A DNA stretch of 64,000 nucleotides from assembly GCA_964516095.1 (NCBI GenBank), contig CAZEYS010000001.1, positions 13,095 to 77,094 on the forward strand, given 5' to 3'. The notes below the pieces were generated by a model, which saw nothing but the letters and a program-made list of their open reading frames with translations, did not search any database and had not been told where the DNA came from. How positions within the stretch are numbered: the stretch's first letter is position 1; every line of letters starts with the position of its first letter. Origin of the DNA: an uncultured Aquificales bacterium (GTDB lineage: Bacteria > Aquificota > Aquificia > Aquificales > Hydrogenothermaceae). A program made the translations under genes and the position numbers. This document shows, one piece after another, positions 2,523-42,045 of this stretch.

Positions 2523-3615
2523 AAGCTGTAAATTTTAAATAACTTTCGATAAAGTTGTTTATTTCACCGTCCATAACAGATTGTATATTACCTGTTTCAT
2601 AACCAGTTCGAAGGTCTTTTACCATCTGATAAGGATGGAACACATAAGACCTTATCTGGCTTCCCCAGCTTATTTCTTTCTTTTCTCCTTCTAACTCTTT
2701 TTTCTTTTGTTTTTGTTTTTCAATTTCAAGCTGATAGAGTTTGGCCTTTAGCATCTGCATGGCTTTTGCTCTGTTTTGAATTTGTGACCTTTCACTCTGG
2801 CAAGAAACAACTATTCCAGTTGGTATATGGGTAATTCTAACTGCAGAATCAGTTTTGTTTACATGCTGACCACCAGCTCCAGAAGCTCTAAATGTATCAA
2901 TTCTCAAGTCATCTTCATTTATCTCAACTTTAATCTCCTCTCCAATTTCTGGAATAACACTTACAGCTGCAAAAGATGTATGTCTTCTTTTATTTGAATC
3001 AAAGGGAGATATTCTTACCAGTCTATGTACTCCCTGTTCTCCTTTTAGATAACCATATGCAAAAGGTCCTTTTACTATAAACGTAGCACTTTTTATTCCA
3101 GCAACATCATCAGGCTGATAATCAACTATCTCTATATCGTAACCATTTTTCTCAGCCCATCTTAGGTACATTCTAAGAAGCATTTCTGCCCAATCGCATG
3201 CTTCAACACCACCTGAACCAGCCTGAACAGAAACAATAGCGTTTTTAGAATCATGTTCCCCAGATAATAAACTTTGGGTTTCCAGTTTATCTACCAATTT
3301 CTCAAGATTTTTAATCTCTGTCTCAAGTTCAGCCTTTGCATTATCATCTGGTTCTATCTCTATAAGTTCAGCGTATTCTTCAAGATAATCTAATTTATCT
3401 GTCACATCTTTTAAATCTTTCAGCTTATTTGCAAGATATGTTCTTTTTGTAGTAATTTCCTGAGCTTTTTTCTGGTCGTTCCAGAAATCTGGCTTTGCCA
3501 TTTCACTGTCAAGTTTTTTTATTTCTTTTTCTATTTCTTCAGGTTTTTCTATTTCTTTAATAGTTTCAAATGTATTTTTAAGCTCTTGTATTTTAGTTTT
3601 AAGGTCTTCTATCAT
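2500..3615 (-). CDS. prfB: Peptide chain release factor 2, single uninterrupted ORF
   Basis: GGQ motif (GAGGQHVN), SPF anticodon-mimic motif, WGSQIRSY. Confidence 0.97.
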
Positions 3616-5523: not shown

Positions 5524-6414
5524 ATGAAGAAAAAATTAGTTCTAATAGACGGTTCATCATACATATATAGGGCTTATTACGCACTTCCTCCTTTAACAAG
5601 CCCAAAAGGTGTCCCTACAGGAGCCATATATGGATTTATAAGGATGATAACAAAACTTTTAAATGAAATAAATCCTGACTATATAGCAGTAGTTTTTGAC
5701 AAATCAGCAAAAACTTTCAGGCATGAAAAGTATCAGGACTACAAAGCCAATAGAAAGGAAACACCTGATGATTTAAAAATCCAAATACCAATTATCAAAA
5801 AAATAATAAATCTGTTTGGAATAAAAGTTATAGAAAAAGAAGGTTTTGAAGCTGATGATATAATTGCAACATTAGCAAAAAAAGCTAAAGAAAAAGAATT
5901 TGAAGTTTATATAATCACTCCAGATAAAGACTTCTTTCAGCTTGTAGAAGACGGGATATATGTCTTTAATCCCATAAATGAAAAATTGTACGATATACAG
6001 GGAGTTAAAGAAAAGTATGGCATATACCCGTACCAATTTGTTGATTATCAAGCTATTGTTGGAGATGCTGTGGATAATATAAAAGGAGTTAAAGGTGTAG
6101 GTCCTAAAACTGCGTCAAAACTTCTAAACGAGTATGGAAACTTAGAAGGAATACTTAACAATTTAGATAAACTACCAGAGAGAATAAAAACTGCTTTTGA
6201 AGAGGCTAAAGATAACCTTGAAAAAAATAGATTTTTAGTTAAACTAAATAGTAATGTTCCAATTGAAATTGATATTGAGGAGTTAAAGAAGGGAAAAACC
6301 CAGTGGGAAGCTTTACTGGAGCAATTCAACGAACTTGGCTTTAAAAGCTTACTAAAAGAAATGAAGAAAAAGGAAAAAGATGAAAAAAAAGCAGCCCAGA
6401 AAAAACTGTTCTGA
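5524..6414 (+). CDS. Stand-alone 5'-3' exonuclease / flap endonuclease (Pol I N-terminal domain only)
   Basis: LIDGSS, YKANR, EADD, GDAVDNIKGVKGVGPKTA; ends at 296 aa with no Klenow domains. Confidence 0.92.
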   Translation: MKKKLVLIDGSSYIYRAYYALPPLTSPKGVPTGAIYGFIRMITKLLNEINPDYIAVVFDKSAKTFRHEKYQDYKANRKETPDDLKIQIPIIKKIINLFGIKVIEKEGFEADDIIATLAKKAKEKEFEVYIITPDKDFFQLVEDGIYVFNPINEKLYDIQGVKEKYGIYPYQFVDYQAIVGDAVDNIKGVKGVGPKTASKLLNEYGNLEGILNNLDKLPERIKTAFEEAKDNLEKNRFLVKLNSNVPIEIDIEELKKGKTQWEALLEQFNELGFKSLLKEMKKKEKDEKKAAQKKLF

Positions 6415-32675: not shown

Positions 32676-33893
32676 ATGGGTTTATCTCCTGTTGAAATAA
32701 AGGAGAAAATAAAAAAATATGCCCAAGAGTTATATCCAGAACTTGTAAACTGGAGAAGGCATATTCACATGCACCCTGAACTAAGTGGTGAAGAATATGA
32801 AACATCAAAATTTGTAGCAGAAAAATTAAGAGAATTTGGTGTTGATGAAGTGATAGAAAACTTTGCAGGAACAACGGCAGTAGTAGGTCTAATAAAAGGA
32901 AAGCATGATGTTACAGTAGCTTTAAGAGCTGATATGGATGCTTTACCAATGATGGAAAAAAGAGATGTACCTTATAAGTCTAAAAAAGACGGTGTAATGC
33001 ATTCGTGTGGGCATGATGCCCATACAACTATTTTACTCGGGGCTGCAAAAGTATTGATGGAAATGAAAGAACACTTACAGGGGAATGTAAAATTGATATT
33101 TCAGCCCTGTGAAGAAAGAATGGATTGCAAAGGGGCTAAATTTTTAATTGAAAATGGAGTGTTAGAAAATCCTAAAGTGTCTGCAATTTTTGGCATACAT
33201 ATGTTTCCAGAACTACCGATTGGTAAGGTCGGTACACGTATTGGTCATTTTATGGCATCTGCAGACATTTTTAAAGTAAAAATAAAAGGAAAAGGTTCCC
33301 ACGCTTCAAGACCTCATATGGGTATAGACCCAGTTTTGATAGCAGCTCAAACTATAAATGCAATGCATCATATAGTCAGCAGAAAAGTAGATCCACTTCA
33401 TCCAGCTGTAATTACCATAGGAAAAATAAATGGAGGTTTTGCAGAAAACATCATCCCTGATGAAGTAGAATTTTCAGGAACTGTAAGAACATTAAGCATA
33501 GATTTGAGAGACCAGATCCCTAAGTGGATAGAGCACACTATTTGGGGTACCACACTTGCTTATGGTGGAGCTTATGAATTTAAATACGAATATGGTAGTC
33601 CTCCAGTTATAAATGACGAAAAAACTACTAAATTTGCCCTTTCTATGATGAAAGATTTAATTGGTGAAGAAAATGTAGTAGAGCTTGAGTATCCAAGTAT
33701 GGGAGGAGAAGATTTTGGAGAGTATCTTCAGGTAGTACCTGGGACTTTTATACGATTAGGTATAAGAAATGAAGAAAAGGGTATCACTGCTCCACTCCAC
33801 AGTCCTCTGTTTGACATAGATGAAGAAGTGTTAAAAATTGGAACTATGATAATGGCATATTTAGCCTATAAATGGGTTGAAGAACACTCTTGA
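32676..33893 (+). CDS. M20D amidohydrolase
   Basis: RRHIHMHPELS, LRADMDALP, MHSCGHDAH, FQPCEE, GGEDF, HSP.F. Confidence 0.92.
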   Translation: MGLSPVEIKEKIKKYAQELYPELVNWRRHIHMHPELSGEEYETSKFVAEKLREFGVDEVIENFAGTTAVVGLIKGKHDVTVALRADMDALPMMEKRDVPYKSKKDGVMHSCGHDAHTTILLGAAKVLMEMKEHLQGNVKLIFQPCEERMDCKGAKFLIENGVLENPKVSAIFGIHMFPELPIGKVGTRIGHFMASADIFKVKIKGKGSHASRPHMGIDPVLIAAQTINAMHHIVSRKVDPLHPAVITIGKINGGFAENIIPDEVEFSGTVRTLSIDLRDQIPKWIEHTIWGTTLAYGGAYEFKYEYGSPPVINDEKTTKFALSMMKDLIGEENVVELEYPSMGGEDFGEYLQVVPGTFIRLGIRNEEKGITAPLHSPLFDIDEEVLKIGTMIMAYLAYKWVEEHS

Positions 33894-34129
33894 AAAATAT
33901 CTTCAATCTTCAAACTTTTTATTATTTTCTCACATACATGTGGTGGGTTTTTGATATCTACTTTTTTTCCTTCTTTTTTTAGCTTAAATATTAATTTAAG
34001 TGCTTCACTATCAACTATGCTGCATTTCGAAAGGTCAAAAACAACGTGTTTATAAGAGCTTAAATCTTTAAGTGAAGCGATATAAGCATAGTTAAAAGCC
34101 CAATCTGGTCTTAAAATTATTTTTTCCAT
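33866..34129 (-). CDS. STAS-domain protein (anti-sigma antagonist-like)
   Basis: VVFDLSKCSIVDSEAL matches the STAS DLS..xDS motif; start overlaps the upstream stop. Confidence 0.7.
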   Translation of the reverse strand: MEKIILRPDWAFNYAYIASLKDLSSYKHVVFDLSKCSIVDSEALKLIFKLKKEGKKVDIKNPPHVCEKIIKSLKIEDIFQECSSTHL

Positions 34130-35577
34130 TTTTTCATATCCTTAAATACAAATTTTTTCAACCTTTTAGCCATGTCTGAATAAACATGTATCCAGTCAGG
34201 TTGAAATTCTAAATCTATATATTGAAGTCTCAGATAGTCCTTTTCTTTATGAAAAAGCGGCATAATTCCTCCAAAGAAAAAGCCAATCTGGTTTAATTCA
34301 TCAGTTATATACTTCGTATAAGGTTTATCAAGAGGTAAGTCTATAAAGAAGGCCTTTATTCCTTTATCTTGCAGTGTGTCAAACTGTTTTTTTATTCTTT
34401 TTATAAAGTCTTTTCCGTATTCTCTCACTATAAAAAGGGAAAATCCTTTATCATAATCTATAATAGTATCTACTTTAGAGCCTTCTGAAAGAGAGAAATT
34501 TTTCACTCTTTTATTTTTTACTTTTATTCCCATATTTGCGTATATTTCTTTTATTATATTTTTATACCTTTCAGGTAGATACCCTTCTGCATTCTTCCTA
34601 TTAATCAAATGTAAAAAGTCAATAACTACAGAAATTCTTGGTTGCTTTACTTCAAAACCTTTATACTCAATATAAGGGAACATTCCTATTAAAAGGGCTG
34701 TAGATTTAAAACCAAATTTGGCGTTTACTTTTTGACTGATTGTATGAACAGTTACAGCCTCTCCAAAAAGACCTAAAAGTCCTTTCTCTTTTGCCATATT
34801 AATTAGTGCCTGCATCATAATGTTCATAAGACCTTTTCCTCTATGGTTAGGAGAAACCACAACTTCTCCAACTTCTCCTATTTTCGAGTCAGTGCTTTTT
34901 AAGACTGCAAAATATCCAACAGCTTCCCCTTCTTTGGTTCTTACTATTACTCCAAATTTCTTATTTTTTCTAAATGCTTCTTTTATCTTGTCTGGATAGT
35001 AAAGCTCATCTTTAGCATATGTGTATCCGTAGGCTCTGTATATAAGCTTGGCTATGTCTTCAGCGTCTTCTGGCCGAGCAACGTCAAGCTCGTAAATAAC
35101 GCCTTTAGGTTCTTCTTTTATTATCTCTTCTGGATTATAAATCTGGGTTATATGTTTTCGGGGTAATTTTTTTTCGAGTTGAAACTCTTTTCCCTCAAGA
35201 CCTAAGTTAAAAAATGTAAAATTATCACTTAGTTTTTTGGCTATTTCAAATCCTATTCCCTCAAAGTCTCCTTTTTTTATCTTTTCCTTAGAAAAAGTAT
35301 GTTTTTCAGGGTCAAATGGTTCACCTTTTTCTAAAATTTTTACAGTAATTTTTGTTCCATCATTATCCACAAGCAAATCAATATTTCCTTCTTCATCTTT
35401 ATAAGCGTGTAGTATTATATTTGTTAAAATTTCATCTACTGCAGTTGTGAACTCATCAGCTTGCTCTTTTTCAAGTCCGCTGGTCAAAAAATATTCATGT
35501 AAAAATCTAAGTGTTGGATTTAGATTTGTTAATCTACTTTTTAGAGTTATTTTAATTTCATCCATAATTTCTACCAA
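34117..35577 (-). CDS. RsbW-like HATPase fused to GNAT acetyltransferase domain(s)
   Basis: DEILTNIILHAY, KGEPFDP, EGIGF; acetyl-CoA motif VVSPNHRGKGL; SQKVN. Confidence 0.82.
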   Translation of the reverse strand: MVEIMDEIKITLKSRLTNLNPTLRFLHEYFLTSGLEKEQADEFTTAVDEILTNIILHAYKDEEGNIDLLVDNDGTKITVKILEKGEPFDPEKHTFSKEKIKKGDFEGIGFEIAKKLSDNFTFFNLGLEGKEFQLEKKLPRKHITQIYNPEEIIKEEPKGVIYELDVARPEDAEDIAKLIYRAYGYTYAKDELYYPDKIKEAFRKNKKFGVIVRTKEGEAVGYFAVLKSTDSKIGEVGEVVVSPNHRGKGLMNIMMQALINMAKEKGLLGLFGEAVTVHTISQKVNAKFGFKSTALLIGMFPYIEYKGFEVKQPRISVVIDFLHLINRKNAEGYLPERYKNIIKEIYANMGIKVKNKRVKNFSLSEGSKVDTIIDYDKGFSLFIVREYGKDFIKRIKKQFDTLQDKGIKAFFIDLPLDKPYTKYITDELNQIGFFFGGIMPLFHKEKDYLRLQYIDLEFQPDWIHVYSDMAKRLKKFVFKDMKKWKK

Positions 35578-35648: not shown

Positions 35649-36095
35649 ATGAAAATTAAAATCGATTCTTTAGAAAACCTTGAAGAGTTTGCTAAAAAAT
35701 TTGTATCATGCTTAGAAGGTAATGAAGTTTTACTTTTATATGGAAACCTGGCAGCAGGAAAAACCACATTCACAAAATTTTTAGTAAAAGCATTAGAACC
35801 AAGTTTAGTTGACGAGGTCAACTCCCCTACATTTAATATAATGAATGTCTATGAAACCTCTAAATTTCCTATTTATCACATTGACCTTTATCGAGTAAAA
35901 GAATTTGATATTACCGATATCTTGAATACAGGCCTTATAATCGTAGAGTGGGCTGATTATATAGATGATAGAGATTTGGCAGATACCCCTGTTATACGTA
36001 TAAAATTTGATATAGTTGACGAAAATAAAAGAATTATTACTATAAATTCTACTGAAAGCAAGATTACAGAATGTTTAAAATCTTTTGGATTCTAA
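35649..36095 (+). CDS. tsaE: tRNA threonylcarbamoyladenosine biosynthesis ATPase
   Basis: GNLAAGKTTF, SPTF, HIDLYR, IVEWA. Confidence 0.93.
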   Translation: MKIKIDSLENLEEFAKKFVSCLEGNEVLLLYGNLAAGKTTFTKFLVKALEPSLVDEVNSPTFNIMNVYETSKFPIYHIDLYRVKEFDITDILNTGLIIVEWADYIDDRDLADTPVIRIKFDIVDENKRIITINSTESKITECLKSFGF

Positions 36096-37573
36096 TCTTA
36101 CTAATTTTCAGTGTAGGTGCAACTTTTGCACAAAAGGCATACTGTATAAAATTATTTGAGGATAATAAACTACCTAATATAAAAAAAATAAAGGATATTA
36201 GTATTCGCATGGGATTTGCTACAGGAAACTATAAAATTCTTTATAAAGATAAAAGTACCTTACTTATAGGCTATTTTAAAACTTTTAATTCTGTCATCCC
36301 TGTTTATAAAAAAGTAAGAAAATACTTCTATAAAACTTATATAACTACATGTGATGTAAATGATGATAAACTTAATAAAAAGGTTCTTGCACGCTCTAAA
36401 AACTTTAAAGACTTCATTGAATTTTATAGAAAACAGCTTCTATTTTTCGAAAGGATATTAAAAAACCAAAAGAAAATACAGTTCTACAATCCAAAATCAA
36501 CCACAAACACTGCTCTACTGAATATAAGAAATAAAATATATGATGTGTTATTTACAAGACCTGACTGGCAATTGTATTTTATAGGAAATCTATTTTATAA
36601 TTCACGAAAAACTCTTGGAGATGATATGTCTTATCCATATAAGTGGGGAGGTTCATTAGGTATAGAAATTCCCATTTTAGAAAACGATTTAAAGAAAAAT
36701 TCTCTAGAAAAAAGATATTACAAATTACTATCTGAGCTACAGAATTTAAGAATTTATACACCTTATGAAGATATACTATCGTTTTACAATAAACATAACT
36801 CTATATTAGATAGTAATTTAAATGCTATACAGTATCATCATTATATCTTTTTAAGATATATACAGGAATATATGAAAAAGCTATCTAAATTCGATAAGTA
36901 CTACAAAAGAACTCAAAAACTGGTACAATTAATGTCTTCTTACGAAAAGCCTTCTACAAAAGAAAATCTTGAACCGTATTTATTTAATATATGTAATGTT
37001 GATATTGATAAAATTCAACTTATCCTAAAACAGGAAAAACATAATTTGCTAACTGCAGCCAATAATATAAGTCTAAACGATTATTCAAGTTCAACTGATA
37101 TAGATTTAAGGTTAAAAATTACATTTAACTATAGAAAGGGAATCCAAAATTATAGTAATGATTATGTCAAAGGAGAAGTATCGTTTAGGATTCCAACGTT
37201 CAGTAAAAGTATAAGTAATAGGCAAATAGAAAAATTGAATTTAGAACTAGAAAGAATAAAAACTTTAAATAAAAATAGACAGTTTTTAATTCAAGTGGAA
37301 GATGAAATATCAAATTTGAAACAGTACTATTTCCTATATAAGAAACACGAGTTACTTTACAAAGTCAAGCTATTTGAAGTAAAAAAAGATTATTTTCTAT
37401 TGAAAATGGGAATAGGATATCCAGATTTTGAAAAAACGTTGAATCAGATAAATAGTATCTATAATGAGCTTGAGATGATGGCAATATATCAAGATAGACT
37501 AATTAAAAGCTTAAACAAGATATATATTTTCTTAAATAGTTTAAATAAAAAATTCCAAATACCATGTCGTTAA
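36071..37573 (+). CDS. Secreted TolC-like outer-membrane factor with possible N-terminal SPOR-like domain
   Basis: Signal peptide (TFA-Q); two repeats of paired beta-strands separated by long helices; leads an operon with a membrane-fusion protein. Confidence 0.5.
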   Translation: MFKIFWILILLIFSVGATFAQKAYCIKLFEDNKLPNIKKIKDISIRMGFATGNYKILYKDKSTLLIGYFKTFNSVIPVYKKVRKYFYKTYITTCDVNDDKLNKKVLARSKNFKDFIEFYRKQLLFFERILKNQKKIQFYNPKSTTNTALLNIRNKIYDVLFTRPDWQLYFIGNLFYNSRKTLGDDMSYPYKWGGSLGIEIPILENDLKKNSLEKRYYKLLSELQNLRIYTPYEDILSFYNKHNSILDSNLNAIQYHHYIFLRYIQEYMKKLSKFDKYYKRTQKLVQLMSSYEKPSTKENLEPYLFNICNVDIDKIQLILKQEKHNLLTAANNISLNDYSSSTDIDLRLKITFNYRKGIQNYSNDYVKGEVSFRIPTFSKSISNRQIEKLNLELERIKTLNKNRQFLIQVEDEISNLKQYYFLYKKHELLYKVKLFEVKKDYFLLKMGIGYPDFEKTLNQINSIYNELEMMAIYQDRLIKSLNKIYIFLNSLNKKFQIPCR

Positions 37574-37579
37574 TGAACC

Positions 37580-39097
37580 ATGGATATTGAAAGAAATTAT
37601 GCAAGGAAATCTTATAGGTTAAAAATCCCAGCCAAAATAATAATAAATGGGAATGAATACCAAGTTGTAGATTGGTCTTTTTTAGGATTTAGAATAAAAA
37701 AAGATGGTCTGGATATAAAGAAGGGAGAAAAGATTGATGTTGAATTTGAACTTCCATTTGCCGGTTTTGAAGTAAAATTTAAAGCCAAAGCTATATGTAG
37801 ATGGTGTAACCAAGAAGAAGCTGGATTTGAGTTTATCAATCTGCCTGATGAGACAAAACTCCTAATGAGACAGTATGTAGAAGCATATATAGAAGGTAGA
37901 TTAACTTCTTCAAATAATGAATTCTTAACTTTAGCCGAAGGAATTGAACTACCTGTTGAGACTGAACCTACTTTAAGCAAGAAAGAAAAAGATTTATTAG
38001 ATAAGAAACTCATACGCAATACTATTTTAATAATTATAGCCTTTATAATATTAGGAATTATAGGTTTTATCTTCTATAAGAATTTACCTGTTGTTTATAG
38101 TGTAGAAGCTTTTATTAGTGGTACTACCATAAATATAGTATCTCCAGAAAATGGGACTATAGAACAGATACCTGTCCATGCAGGAGATATGGTTTCAAAA
38201 GGAGATGTTTTATTTAAAATACGAAATAAAGAAATGTATTTAGAATACGAAGGATTACAAAAATCTCTCTCCTTAAAAGAAGAAGCATTGAGCAAGCTTA
38301 AAGATCAATTTTCAAAAATCAGTGTGTCTAATACGAAAAACAATGATATGGAACTAAAGTTAATTAATAAGCAGATAGCAATACTCACTAATACGTTGAA
38401 TAAGAAATTAAAGGAACTTGAACTCTTGAAAAAAGCTTATGATTTATATTTAATAAAAAAAGAGTATATAGAAAAATTGGAAAATGAAATAAATAACTTA
38501 AAAATCCAAATACTTCAGCTAAAAAAAGAAAAATCTCAGCTTGAAAATGACAAAAAATCAAAACTATTACAATATCAACTACGTACAAATCTGCTTTATA
38601 AAATTGCTTCTTTAAAAAGTGAAATTAGAGAAATTAAAAATAAGTTAGATATCCTCAGACATAATTTAGAGAAATTAACTGTTATTTCCGATGGAAATGG
38701 ATATATTTTTTCTGTGTATAAAAAACAAGGAGAAACTGTAAAAAAATATGAGCCAGTTCTAGTATTTAGTAACACTAAAGAAAACCCATACGTAATAGCA
38801 AGATTAAAATTAAAAGATGCAGAAAAAGTCAAAATAGGAGATAAGGCCGAAGTATTTATTCCATCATTAAAAAAAGTATACTATGGAAAAGTTGTTGCTA
38901 TAGGAAAGCAGTCCTTAGCTTCTGAAAGTGTTGTAAGTGAAACAGAAAGTTATGCTTTAAATGATGTTCCTGTAAAAATAAAAATAGAGAATGCTGACAA
39001 AAACTTATATGCCGGTCTATATGCTGAAGTAAAAATTAAAACTCAAAGCAGATACGTATTCATACTGGATTTTATATCCAAGTTATTAGGACATTAA
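37580..39097 (+). CDS. Alg44-like protein: PilZ + TM + membrane-fusion (HlyD-like) domain
   Basis: PilZ motifs RKSYR (RxxxR) and DWSFLG (DxSxxG); one TM; lipoyl-like half motifs flanking a coiled coil. Confidence 0.85.
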   Translation: MDIERNYARKSYRLKIPAKIIINGNEYQVVDWSFLGFRIKKDGLDIKKGEKIDVEFELPFAGFEVKFKAKAICRWCNQEEAGFEFINLPDETKLLMRQYVEAYIEGRLTSSNNEFLTLAEGIELPVETEPTLSKKEKDLLDKKLIRNTILIIIAFIILGIIGFIFYKNLPVVYSVEAFISGTTINIVSPENGTIEQIPVHAGDMVSKGDVLFKIRNKEMYLEYEGLQKSLSLKEEALSKLKDQFSKISVSNTKNNDMELKLINKQIAILTNTLNKKLKELELLKKAYDLYLIKKEYIEKLENEINNLKIQILQLKKEKSQLENDKKSKLLQYQLRTNLLYKIASLKSEIREIKNKLDILRHNLEKLTVISDGNGYIFSVYKKQGETVKKYEPVLVFSNTKENPYVIARLKLKDAEKVKIGDKAEVFIPSLKKVYYGKVVAIGKQSLASESVVSETESYALNDVPVKIKIENADKNLYAGLYAEVKIKTQSRYVFILDFISKLLGH

Positions 39098-41785
39098 ATG
39101 ATGCATACACCTTTAGATCAACTCAGAAAATACGAGACAAGATATGAGATGCCTATAAATATCATCCAAAGTATTAAATTCTTTACATTTTGGACATTTA
39201 TTATGATATTGATACTTTATTCTATCCCTGATGTTGCATGGGAGCTTAGGATGAATGGCTTTTTTGCCATAGCTATTATAGGGATATGGAGATATTCATG
39301 GTTTTTAATAAATGTTTTTCAAGGTCTTATATATGAGAAGATAGTTTTCAAAAAATATAAGGAAGAGTTAAGGAAAATACCTTTACAAAAAAAGTTTCCT
39401 AAAAGAGTGTATTTTATAATACCTTCATATCATGAAGATAAAAGAATTACCAAAAACGTATTTAAATTTTTGATAGAAGAATGTTATAAAATTCCATCCC
39501 AGATCTATTTTTTTATATCTGTAGGTTCACAAGAAGAAGTAGATTACATAAAAATGCTAATAAGCATATTTGATTTACAAAAAAAAGTAAAAGTAAAATT
39601 TTTATTCCAAAGCCAAGGAAAAAGAGTAGCTTTATACCATGCTCTAAAAGCAGTTGCCAGAGAATTTTATAAACCTTTGTCTTTTCATAGAGATTACAAA
39701 AACGACGTACTTGTATTGATGGACGGAGATACAGTTGTTGGAAAAAATATACTTTTAAAAACTTTACCCTTTTTTATCTGGAATACCAATTTAGGTGCAC
39801 TAACAACAGATGAAGAAATTTACTACTTTGGGAATAACAAATTAATTGGCGTGTGGTATAAATTAAAATTTGCACGAAGACATATAATGATGAAATCTCA
39901 TAGTTTACATAAAAAAGTGTTAACGTTAACAGGTAGATTTTCAGCCTTTAGAGCCCATATAATGTTAAATGAAGAATTTATCAATCTCATAGCAAAAGAT
40001 CATATTGATCACTGGTTGTTTGGAAAATTTAGATTTTTAATGGGGGATGACAAAACTACATGGTTTTATTTGTTAAAAAACGGATGGGATATGCTTTATA
40101 TTCCAGATGTATTAATATTTTCTGTGGAAAATAGGGAAGGCTCTTTCTTCAAAGTAACAACATCCCTAATGTTTAGATGGTATGGAAATATGCTTAGAAA
40201 CAACTGGAGGGCTATCAAATTGGGGCCAAAAAGAATAGGTAGCTTTTTTATATGGTATGCAATTATAGACCAAAGAATATCTATGTGGACATCTCTCATC
40301 GGACCCACAGCCATAACGTTAATGTCTTTATTTATATCACCTTTTTACTGGTTGTTTTACACCGCATGGGTAATATTTACAAGACAACTTCAAATTGCAG
40401 TATTGATCAGAGAAAGACTTTCGCTTGAAATAATAACACTACCCCTCCTGTTATACGATCAATGGTTTGGTTCTATTGTAAAGATATACACTTCAGCAAA
40501 TCTTGCAAAACAAAAATGGTCTAAAGCTAAATCTCAAACTGTTAATATAAGTATAGACACATATCCACTTTTAAGAAAAAGCTTGCCCTACGTTTTATTA
40601 ATTTTGCTATTTATTTTATTTATATTTTTTATAGGAGTTTATGTAAAAATATTTAAATTTCCAGATATTAGGTTTGAAATATTTAAACAGGCATATGCTG
40701 AGGAGCCTTTACTTATTCCTAATGATGGTTTAGATGATTCTAAAAGTTTACAGATACTTGTAAATAGTAAAAATTTTATTAAATTGCCCCCAGGAATTTT
40801 GGATTTTTATCATCCTGTAGTTATAAATCGGAATAATGTTCATATTGTAGGAAATAATACAATTATACATTCTCATATCAAAACTCCAGGAAAAGCCGTT
40901 TTCGTAATAGAAGGTAAAGGAATTAAGAGAACAATAGGATACGTTCCTAAAACTATCAAAGAAGGTACTAACTTTATTCCTATTGAATATACAAAACAAC
41001 CTTCAGATGAGACTAAATTCATATGGGTTGGAAGCCCAAATACAGATGAATTTTTAAAAAAAATAAAAGCAAAAATATGGAAAAGAAAGTATCCCTATAT
41101 AAGGCAAAGAATATTCAGAATATTTAAGATAACCAATAATGGAATTAAAACTACTGATCAGGTAGATTTTCCTATAGACAAAAACTCTGCAGTAAAAGAA
41201 ATCTCTTTAGTTAAAGATGTGATTATAAGTAATTTAGTTATTAAACAAATTATTCCGAATGCTGATCCTAACAAAGTAAAATTCGTATACAAAAATCTTT
41301 ACCCAGGCTATAGAGTTGATGCTATTAAAATATATTGGGGGGCTAATATTAAACTGTATAACATAGATATATATATGGCAGGAAGACATCCTATAAATAT
41401 GGAAAATTCTTATGGAATTTCAATAAGGAATACAAAAATCATAGGCGCATGGAATAAAGGAAAAAAAGGAAATGGGTATGTAAGGTTTTCCAAGACTTAT
41501 AATTCTATACTAGAAAACTGCATTATTAAGGATATAAGGCATATGACTTTCCAATGGTCATCTTCTAAAAACATGGTAAAAAACTGCAAGATATACGTAG
41601 ATATAAATTTTCATGGAGGATTCGACAGATACAACACAGTTAAAAACTGCTTTATATCGATACCACCTTATCACAAATGGAATCCAATACAAAAAACACC
41701 TTTAGATGCTAGATGGGCACCTCCAGATGGATGGGGGAATAAGATTTTAGATTGTATTATTAATATAGGTGGGGCTAAAGATTAG
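39098..41785 (+). CDS. Alg8-like GT2 polysaccharide synthase fused to a C-terminal parallel beta-helix domain
   Basis: GIWRYSW, MDGDT (DxD), LTGRFSAFRA, MGDDK, LMFRWYGNMLRN (LxxRW); after about residue 535 a pectin-lyase-like start NDGLDDSKSLQ...LPPG and beta-helix periodicity. Confidence 0.85.
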   Translation: MMHTPLDQLRKYETRYEMPINIIQSIKFFTFWTFIMILILYSIPDVAWELRMNGFFAIAIIGIWRYSWFLINVFQGLIYEKIVFKKYKEELRKIPLQKKFPKRVYFIIPSYHEDKRITKNVFKFLIEECYKIPSQIYFFISVGSQEEVDYIKMLISIFDLQKKVKVKFLFQSQGKRVALYHALKAVAREFYKPLSFHRDYKNDVLVLMDGDTVVGKNILLKTLPFFIWNTNLGALTTDEEIYYFGNNKLIGVWYKLKFARRHIMMKSHSLHKKVLTLTGRFSAFRAHIMLNEEFINLIAKDHIDHWLFGKFRFLMGDDKTTWFYLLKNGWDMLYIPDVLIFSVENREGSFFKVTTSLMFRWYGNMLRNNWRAIKLGPKRIGSFFIWYAIIDQRISMWTSLIGPTAITLMSLFISPFYWLFYTAWVIFTRQLQIAVLIRERLSLEIITLPLLLYDQWFGSIVKIYTSANLAKQKWSKAKSQTVNISIDTYPLLRKSLPYVLLILLFILFIFFIGVYVKIFKFPDIRFEIFKQAYAEEPLLIPNDGLDDSKSLQILVNSKNFIKLPPGILDFYHPVVINRNNVHIVGNNTIIHSHIKTPGKAVFVIEGKGIKRTIGYVPKTIKEGTNFIPIEYTKQPSDETKFIWVGSPNTDEFLKKIKAKIWKRKYPYIRQRIFRIFKITNNGIKTTDQVDFPIDKNSAVKEISLVKDVIISNLVIKQIIPNADPNKVKFVYKNLYPGYRVDAIKIYWGANIKLYNIDIYMAGRHPINMENSYGISIRNTKIIGAWNKGKKGNGYVRFSKTYNSILENCIIKDIRHMTFQWSSSKNMVKNCKIYVDINFHGGFDRYNTVKNCFISIPPYHKWNPIQKTPLDARWAPPDGWGNKILDCIINIGGAKD

Positions 41786-41789
41786 CCCC
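41771..41789. terminator. Hairpin between convergent alg8-like gene and khpA
   Basis: GGGGCTAA-AGA-TTAGCCCC; no clear U tract. Confidence 0.5.
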
Positions 41790-41799
41790 GAAAAAGATG

Positions 41800-42045
41800 T
41801 TATTCTAATATTTCAAGAACAGCTCTTTTGTTTTGCTTTCTTGCCAGTGCTGCTAATAATGTTCTTATTGCTCTGGCAGTTCTTCCCTGTCTACCAATAA
41901 CCTTTCCAAGGTCTTCAGGTGCAACTTTTAATTCTATAACAGTAGTTTTTTCTCCTTCAATCTCTCTTACTTCGACTTTCTCAGGGTGATCAACGAGAGA
42001 TTTTGCTACAAACTCTACGAATTCTTGAAGTTTGCTCATGGTCAT
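41800..42045 (-). CDS. khpA: KH-domain RNA-binding protein
   Basis: [24 protein letters not shown]; downstream of rpsP. Confidence 0.93.

Follow-up and report, generated by a model that had tools for sequence, protein, structure and literature searches.

A three-gene cassette, designated here orf1-orf2-orf3, lies between tsaE and khpA in the Hydrogenothermaceae assembly GCA_964516095.1, within a 64,000-nt stretch of contig CAZEYS010000001.1 (the window; coordinates below are positions within it unless a locus is named). The cassette and its flanking genes are as follows.

36071-41785, + strand: cassette orf1-orf2-orf3, 5.7 kb, between tsaE and khpA
35649-36095, + strand: tsaE, left flank (PF02367, E 3.9e-29), stop codon at 36093-36095
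36071-37573, + strand: orf1, 500 amino acids (aa), secreted outer-membrane-factor candidate
37580-39097, + strand: orf2, 505 aa, Alg44-like protein made up of a PilZ domain, a transmembrane helix and a membrane-fusion protein (MFP) part
39098-41785, + strand: orf3, 895 aa, synthase of the Alg8 family of family 2 glycosyltransferases (GT2), fused to a beta-helix domain
41800-42045, - strand: khpA, right flank (PF13083, E 2.7e-27)

All three open reading frames (ORFs) are intact and co-directional, with a gap of 6 nt between orf1 and orf2 and of 0 nt between orf2 and orf3. The ATG of orf1 (36071) is located 25 nt inside tsaE, the last 25 nt of which overlap the start of orf1. An earlier reading of this DNA from its letters alone (the sequence-only reading) had described three tightly packed genes between tsaE and khpA, the first overlapping the tsaE stop, and both this layout and its coordinates were borne out.

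The features of orf3, which encodes the synthase, are as follows.

39401-40189, + strand: cytoplasmic GT2 catalytic domain (PF13641, Glyco_tranf_2_3; residues 102-364, E 4.3e-39)
39722-39730, 40043-40054 and 40166-40180, + strand: GT2 motifs DGD (D209-G-D211), GDDK (G316-D-D-K319) and LxxRW (L357xxR360-W361), respectively
40565-40642, + strand: last transmembrane helix (residues 490-515), with a Lys/Arg-rich loop before it and an AYA-EE peptidase-like site after it
40718-41782, + strand: right-handed beta-helix domain (residues 541-895, the C-terminal 355), probably periplasmic

The DxD, GDD and LxxRW motifs that had led the sequence-only reading to call this gene an Alg8-like GT2 were thus all found. 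For comparison, an alginate reference set was drawn from genomes, comprising a gammaproteobacterial locus (L118), two further gammaproteobacterial loci and loci from four genomes of another Aquificota family. The D-G-D, G-D-D-K and R-W residues are invariant across 64 orf3 homologues and also when orf3 is aligned with the alginate-context Alg8 proteins, and L357 is invariant in both alignments. An AlphaFold (AF2) model of orf3 built on the 64-homologue alignment had a predicted local distance difference test (pLDDT) score of 92.2. Foldseek comparison of the N-terminal 520 residues gave matches to hyaluronan synthase (E 2.5e-14), the cellulose synthase BcsA and chitin synthases, and that of the last 355 residues gave phage tailspike depolymerases/lyases (9k4a, 4ru4 and 7w1d) as the nearest solved folds. 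The earlier description of the three genes had left this C-terminal domain unmentioned. PF12708 (Pect-lyase_RHGA_epim) was matched by 15 of 23 orthologous beta-helix domains (best E 5e-7); the window's own domain matched just Beta_helix, weakly (E 0.009), and its right-handed beta-helix fold was confirmed by the model and Foldseek. A phmmer search of orf3 against PDB sequences gave no match, and NCBIfam gave no informative model, the sole match being NodC (E 6e-4).

The loop ahead of the last transmembrane helix (residues 468-489) contains six Lys/Arg, and the helix order of orf3 mirrors that of hyaluronan synthase (an interface helix, two transmembrane helices, an interface helix and a transmembrane helix). 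By the positive-inside rule and this analogy, the beta-helix is predicted to face the periplasm, and it is probably a glycan-processing, depolymerase-like domain. An AlgG-type epimerase was considered for it and rejected, because hhalign gave a probability of 5.9% and the DPHD motif, which is invariant in the AlgG-like proteins collected for comparison, is present neither among the invariant residues of the domain nor in its consensus. Asn, Lys, Arg and His predominate among the invariant residues, and acidic ones are few; such a set is more in keeping with uronate-active enzymes than with retaining or inverting hydrolases. In addition, around residues 516-541 of orf3 (40640-40720), the beta-helix is preceded in many orthologues by another short hydrophobic stretch and then an Ala-X-Ala-like site (AYA-EE in the window; AQA-ES, AFA-QT and ASA-DT in orthologues). 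The beta-helix may descend from a once independent secreted protein, or signal peptidase may cut it free.

The gene upstream of the synthase, orf2, encodes the putative adaptor.

37592-37882, + strand: PilZ domain (residues 5-101; PF07238, E 7.5e-9), with R9xxxR13 and D31xS33xxG36
38015-38077, + strand: single transmembrane helix (residues ~146-166), at the hydropathy peak
38237-38671, + strand: Lys/Glu/Leu-rich coiled-coil hairpin (residues ~220-364), delimited from the alignment

The MFP part of orf2 is of the biotin-lipoyl/HlyD type, matching HlyD_3 (E 1.5e-9) and HlyD_D23 (E 8.6e-9) in Pfam and EmrA/HlyD-type adaptor models in NCBIfam (E 1e-17 to 1e-20). The MFPs of the window, Aquifex, Sulfurimonas and Ramlibacter were aligned with the Alg44 of L118 and those of the Aquificota alginate-type operons. 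The result showed that R9, R13, S33 and G36 of the PilZ domain are invariant, in agreement with the intact PilZ motifs that had been noted in an Alg44-like gene. It also showed an extra coiled-coil stretch of ~110-150 residues (~145 aa in the window) in the MFPs of the window, Aquifex, Sulfurimonas and Ramlibacter, which is missing both from the Alg44 of L118, the canonical operon, and from the Alg44s that the Aquificota alginate-type operons encode. We take this insertion to be the alpha-hairpin by which MFPs contact TolC-type channels. The identity of orf2 to alginate-context Alg44s is 17-26%. When its PilZ domain alone was searched against the PDB, no match was obtained at E up to 10, the Alg44 structure 4rt0 included; the Alg44 of L118 matched 4rt0, the PilZ structure of Pseudomonas aeruginosa Alg44, at E 4e-31.

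The first gene, orf1, is highly divergent, and its domains were recognized by profile and fold comparison.

36134-36355, + strand: SPOR-like beta-alpha-beta-beta-alpha-beta domain (residues 22-95), probable peptidoglycan anchor
36488-37540, + strand: TolC-like module (residues ~140-490), two repeats of a beta-hairpin and a long helical hairpin

The orf1 product begins with a signal peptide. Searches of Pfam, NCBIfam and, by phmmer, the PDB gave no sequence match, a word-based homologue search returned orf1 alone, and phmmer recovered two relatives and no more from 1.84 billion representatives. From its sequence, orf1 appears to be a fast-evolving secreted protein. Its AF2 model, of moderate confidence (pLDDT 66.6), contains two beta-hairpin and long-helix repeats, and the best 24 Foldseek PDB matches of this model are all TolC-family proteins (E 2.8e-6 to 2e-3, >400 aligned columns). 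A wider orf1 family of 37 sequences aligned by hhalign with the genome's own OEP proteins at 75% probability (E 2.5e-5). A TolC-like character at the level of the fold is supported by the model; the 'TolC-like gene' of the sequence-only reading is thus probable as a statement about fold and not supported as one about sequence family, for which Pfam, NCBIfam and the PDB gave no match.

The SPOR-like domain of orf1 aligned with the SPOR domain of Aquificota SPOR-AlgE porins at 96.2% hhalign probability (E 2.4e-9), and that porin domain matches Pfam SPOR at E 5e-5. Pfam SPOR did not match orf1 itself and weakly matched the Aquifex aeolicus orthologue. The possibility that orf1 is an AlgE-type porin, as found in Aquificota alginate operons, was rejected, as the homology is limited to the SPOR part and the orf1 model is mostly helical. 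A SPOR-like N-terminus is thus seen at the head of two unrelated Aquificota outer-membrane modules, one TolC-like (36134-36355 in the window) and one AlgE-like (L020:11255-13111), which suggests domain swapping around a common peptidoglycan anchor.

Relatives of the cassette are widespread. More than 1,300 relatives of the fused synthase were found in the protein collection, and at least 565 loci in species-level genomes encode a relative of the synthase domain, fused or unfused. Eighty of these loci were analysed, and the counts below refer to them unless stated. They span more than 10 phyla, including Campylobacterota, Desulfobacterota, Gammaproteobacteria, Bacteroidota, Rhodothermota, Verrucomicrobiota, Actinomycetota and Planctomycetota. 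The results showed that an MFP gene is located immediately upstream of the synthase in ~75 of the 80 loci, and that the PilZ motifs are kept in 62 of 76 partner MFPs. A third, orf1-like gene abuts the synthase in 34 of the 63 loci with enough flank, and this gene is homologous to orf1 (hhalign 96.5%, E 8e-10). The order orfX-MFP-synthase also occurs in five other Aquificota loci, that of A. aeolicus included, and in one such locus (L013) a GGDEF gene lies directly downstream. The nearest synthase relatives are from Hydrogenothermaceae and Hydrogenothermus metagenome-assembled genomes (MAGs), with 69-71% identity, which fits the earlier guess of a probable Aquificota thermophile. A search for diguanylate cyclases had been one of the checks put forward with the sequence-only reading, and the window's genome proved to contain at least 14 GGDEF genes. 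Given the PilZ motifs, these GGDEF genes and the GGDEF gene beside the related locus, control of the machine by cyclic di-GMP (c-di-GMP) is probable, and the earlier proposal of a compact c-di-GMP-controlled machine of synthase, MFP and outer-membrane factor is upheld.

In the mechanism we propose, orf3 would reside in the inner membrane, where its cytoplasmic Alg8-family GT2 domain would polymerize a sugar-nucleotide and thread the chain through the synthase's own channel. Binding of c-di-GMP to the cytoplasmic PilZ domain of orf2 would switch orf3 on. The fused periplasmic beta-helix would trim or modify the emerging chain, a part played elsewhere by AlgL, BcsZ or PslG. A ring of orf2 would bridge, via the long periplasmic alpha-hairpins of its MFP part, to the outer-membrane partner orf1, a TolC-like channel that would be tied to peptidoglycan by its SPOR-like domain and would carry the polymer out. 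The donor would most likely be UDP-glucuronate (UDP-GlcA) and not GDP-mannuronate. That the cassette encodes a tripartite, c-di-GMP-gated synthase-adaptor-channel machine for an exopolysaccharide is, in our judgement, very probable; for the statement as a whole, machine and glucuronate polymer together, we estimate a probability of roughly 0.6.

The identity of the polymer was approached through precursor genes. The window's genome is a draft in 107 contigs, 96.2% complete. Its sole sugar-nucleotide dehydrogenase is a UDP-glucose 6-dehydrogenase (UGDH), scoring 577 bits to PDB 3phl versus 128 bits to AlgD (1mfz), and the search for a GDP-mannose dehydrogenase (GMD), another of the earlier checks, found this UGDH only. 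The organism should therefore be able to make UDP-GlcA, as it encodes a UGDH. A UGDH gene also adjoins 10 of the 80 related loci (those of Ramlibacter and one gammaproteobacterial group), and a GMD gene adjoins none (0/80); the alginate-context loci examined, by contrast, carry an AlgD-type GMD. The UGDHs beside the Ramlibacter and gammaproteobacterial loci are 56-91% identical to the UGDH of locus L100, which itself scores 619 bits to Burkholderia BceC (2y0c), whereas the UGDH adjoining a Sulfurimonas locus is of another, non-orthologous type, with 625 bits to Klebsiella Ugd (3pid). A glucuronate-containing polymer is favoured on the circumstantial evidence of this adjacency, the predicted capacity for UDP-GlcA and the Asn/Lys/Arg/His-rich invariant residues of the beta-helix. 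A glucuronan-like acidic polymer that contains glucuronate and is made from UDP-GlcA is accordingly our leading candidate for the product, at slightly less than even odds. Of the 'polyuronate-like' polymer suggested previously, what remains plausible is a polymer of UDP-glucuronate origin, an origin from GDP-mannuronate being unsupported. We had also considered whether the presence of Ugd tracks that of the synthase among relatives; this argument was dropped, since Ugd is present in all six genomes of the genus regardless.

The same machine could produce a neutral or amino-sugar polymer from UDP-glucose or UDP-N-acetylglucosamine, the beta-helix then being a glycoside hydrolase. Both known synthase-MFP-TolC systems produce beta-glucans, hydrolases are common among PF12708 and tailspike-like beta-helices, UGDH is not adjacent in most related loci, and the profile search with NTP_transferase (PF00483) found GalU and GlmU as the only sugar-1-phosphate nucleotidyltransferases in the window's genome. 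However, the nearest characterized synthase relatives produce polyuronate, the adjacency of UGDH arose with two non-orthologous UGDH types, and the invariant positions of the beta-helix, occupied mainly by Asn, Lys, Arg or His and seldom by an acidic residue, do not favour a hydrolase. We regard a neutral polymer as less likely than one of glucuronate, though a serious competitor to it.

A true minimal alginate/mannuronan system, in which orf3 would act on GDP-mannuronate and the beta-helix would be an AlgG-like C5-epimerase or an AlgL-like lyase, has several resemblances on its side. The Alg8 signature motifs are present in orf3 from end to end, the PilZ-MFP partner is laid out like Alg44, relatives carry the Joint Genome Institute (JGI) labels 'glycosyltransferase Alg8' or 'mannuronan synthase', and genuine alginate-type operons exist in other Aquificota. 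The gammaproteobacterial locus L118 holds a 12-gene operon whose gene order and protein sizes are those of algD-8-44-K-E-G-X-L-I-J-F-A, and orf3 is 33% identical to the Alg8 of this canonical operon. Alginate-type operons are also present at the two further gammaproteobacterial loci of the reference set, and complete ones were seen in thermophiles of another Aquificota family, at loci L020, L022, L023 and L024 (genomes G173, G152, G176 and G174, respectively). Their dehydrogenase scores 387 bits to the P. aeruginosa GDP-mannose dehydrogenase 1mfz versus 300 for any UGDH, and they encode an unfused Alg8, a short Alg44, an AlgG-like protein (830-866 aa, NF038177, DPHD kept), a polysaccharide lyase family 6 (PL6)-like lipoprotein and a porin with SPOR and Alginate_exp domains, with AlgA nearby. 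A second alginate-type copy in G173 (L021) is without the dehydrogenase.

A maximum-likelihood tree was constructed from 94 synthase domains, eight of them from an alginate context. The eight alginate-context Alg8 proteins form one clade with a Shimodaira-Hasegawa-like approximate likelihood ratio test (SH-aLRT) support of 100, and orf3 falls outside it, among the fused forms; forcing orf3 into this clade cost 87.8 log-likelihood units, with an approximately unbiased (AU) test p of 1e-9. In the window's genome, GMP_PMI (TIGR01479) and Alginate_exp gave no match, and the PF00483 search found no AlgA/ManC. A tblastn search of the genome with the canonical and Aquificota alg proteins matched only orf3, the PilZ domain of orf2, Ugd and one SPOR domain; with all 12 canonical proteins, only orf3 and Ugd were matched, and no AlgK/E/G/X/L/I/J/F was found. 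This extends to the whole genome the earlier remark that no algD/K/E/X/L is recognizable. Together with the absence of GMD beside any related locus and of DPHD from a beta-helix unrelated to AlgG, these results make a minimal alginate system very improbable. The sequence-only reading, which had called the cassette alginate/mannuronan-like, had itself held that grouping of the GT2 outside the Alg8 clade, or a conventional alg operon elsewhere, would speak against it. The former was found and the latter was not, and as orf3 is excluded from the clade, the genome shows no route to GDP-mannuronate and no hidden alg operon came to light, the alginate/mannuronan identity is therefore unsupported. 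Judged from the sequences, the cassette is a cousin of alginate synthase and not an alginate system.

Several points weigh against the machine and polymer proposed here. The adjacency of UGDH is a minority pattern, perhaps of two independent lineages, and Ugd occurs in 6/6 genomes of the genus whether the synthase is present or not, so that its co-occurrence with the synthase in the genus is uninformative. The outgroup branch of the tree is very long, and its root is therefore uncertain. A GDP-mannose pathway could have been missed, given a genome that is 96% complete and split into 107 contigs. The orientation of the beta-helix is predicted from the positive-inside rule and the analogy with hyaluronan synthase. 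Finally, the orf1 model is moderately confident, Pfam OEP matched five or six proteins genome-wide without orf1 among them, and the six-sequence orf1 set alone reached 13% probability in hhalign against those OEP proteins.

The status of the locus was examined in congeners. In three of them (G003, G005 and G006), whose flanking genes are 57-97% identical to those of the window, tsaE and khpA are direct neighbours with no cassette between them, so that the cassette is a 5.7-kb insertion. Its GC content, raised by the sequence-only reading as a check for horizontal origin, is mostly 0.265-0.274, with 0.31 in the last ~1 kb, compared to ~0.32 for the whole window. We read the cassette as a horizontally acquired operon, a low-GC insertion at the tsaE/khpA junction. 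Another congener, G004, carries a different insert of ~2.1 kb at the same junction (L130, G004:C132; tsaE 3179-3595, khpA 5737-5973), and the junction may be a recurrent integration spot. Hardly any weight can be given to the possibility of a passenger island, decaying or silent, that makes no polymer in this organism. In its favour, the cassette is an insertion with a patchy distribution (a relative in 13 of 178 Aquificota species genomes), a scan of it found promoter-like sites to be fewer than in shuffles and no terminator, and two in-frame stops interrupt the fused-synthase copy of G003. Against it, the three ORFs of the cassette are intact and tightly coupled, with every invariant catalytic and PilZ residue kept. 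The G003 copy (L002/L005, G003:C47:1447-4090), with one TGA and one TAA in frame, is at a different locus and is probably decaying.

Compared with the Alg8-Alg44 pair of Pseudomonas and Azotobacter, the cassette shares a GT2 with DxD, GDDK and LxxRW and the same helix layout, as well as an adjoining gene for a PilZ-transmembrane-MFP partner. However, orf3 belongs to a separate clade and has a fused beta-helix, orf2 has a long alpha-hairpin not seen in Alg44, a TolC-like outer component takes the place of AlgK/AlgE, AlgD/A/G/X/L/I/J/F are missing, and the genomic link is to UGDH and not to GMD. The alginate-type operons of other Aquificota (L020 and L022-L024) are similar in belonging to the same phylum and in having beta-helix enzymes, a synthase of the Alg8 family with a PilZ-MFP partner, and an outer-membrane component whose N-terminal SPOR domain is homologous to the SPOR-like one of orf1; they differ in their AlgD-type GMD, nearby AlgA, DPHD-containing AlgG-like epimerase, PL6-like lipoprotein and AlgE-type porin, all of which the window lacks, with a TolC-like module in their stead.

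For mixed-linkage beta-glucan in Sinorhizobium meliloti, BgsA/BgsB/TolC has been proposed as a c-di-GMP-controlled exporter of synthase, HlyD-type adaptor and TolC (PMC13438883), and CesA/HlyD/TolC for cellulose in Thermosynechococcus is of the same proposed tripartite type (PMC13438883, citing Maeda et al. 2018). With these precedents published, the principle of synthase-MFP-TolC export is known. At the level of gene content and of a gene adjacency kept across loci, the cassette resembles both systems in its inner-membrane GT2, HlyD-type adaptor and TolC-type channel. Both of those systems have their c-di-GMP receptor on the synthase and use a housekeeping TolC encoded elsewhere, whereas in the cassette PilZ is on the adaptor, a dedicated, highly divergent, SPOR-tagged channel is encoded in the operon, and the synthase is Alg8-like with a beta-helix. 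AlgL, BcsZ, PslG, PelA and the tailspike depolymerases are likewise enzymes that cleave or modify a polysaccharide at the point of exit of the nascent chain, and the fold of the beta-helix is nearest to tailspike depolymerases/lyases; the cassette differs in that its enzyme, a candidate lyase, hydrolase or epimerase, forms a single polypeptide with the synthase. What is new here is the exclusion of orf3 from the true Alg8 proteins, the precursor analysis and the link to UGDH, the SPOR-like domain that orf1 has in common with AlgE-type porins, the hairpin of the adaptor and the empty-site proof of insertion. Our literature search found no study of the fused-synthase family.

The synthase-dependent exopolysaccharide systems that are understood are few, namely cellulose, alginate, poly-N-acetylglucosamine (PNAG), Pel and mixed-linkage glucan. 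The cassette represents a widespread relative of these, carried by vent, sediment and groundwater bacteria, and joins three ideas otherwise separate: a polymerase pair of the Alg8/Alg44 type, export through a TolC-type duct and the fusion of a processing enzyme to the synthase. Metabolic reconstructions of how chemolithoautotrophs form biofilms are probably misled by database labels such as 'Alg8' and 'mannuronan synthase'. A more tentative idea, to which we give odds clearly short of even, is that the fused-synthase family constitutes a distinct bacterial glucuronan pathway, with an Alg8-like enzyme acting on UDP-GlcA, a built-in lyase or epimerase beta-helix, a peptidoglycan-anchored TolC-like duct and control by PilZ and c-di-GMP; if true, this pathway would span several hundred species in more than 10 phyla. 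A self-contained exporter of three genes derived from a thermophile would also suit structural work on the passage of polymers across both membranes.

Some further observations were made around the locus and among its relatives. A 6-bp GC hairpin (GGGGCT...AGCCCC) at 41772-41790 spans the orf3 stop, with the convergent khpA stop 10 nt away; having no T-run on either strand, it does not qualify as a canonical terminator. A 3.3-kb contig labelled as a Nanobdellati archaeon MAG from a DPANN bin (L030, JALWJP010000110.1) carries a split version of the synthase, with a gene for a 528-aa synthase followed by a 369-aa beta-helix gene. This version is 59-60% identical to orf3 and nests among Aquificota sequences in the tree, and the archaeal assignment is probably a binning error. 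The nearest unfused relative is P0027 (535 aa, ~60% identity), encoded on a JGI metagenome contig (L014), where it lies back to back with a cellulose-type cluster containing a BcsQ-like ATPase, a BcsC-like TPR protein and a glycoside hydrolase of family 8 (GH8). Just upstream of tsaE, at 33866-35577 on the - strand, the genes for a HATPase-GNAT fusion protein (486 aa) and a small STAS protein (87 aa) show translational coupling, and this pair is kept in congener G006.

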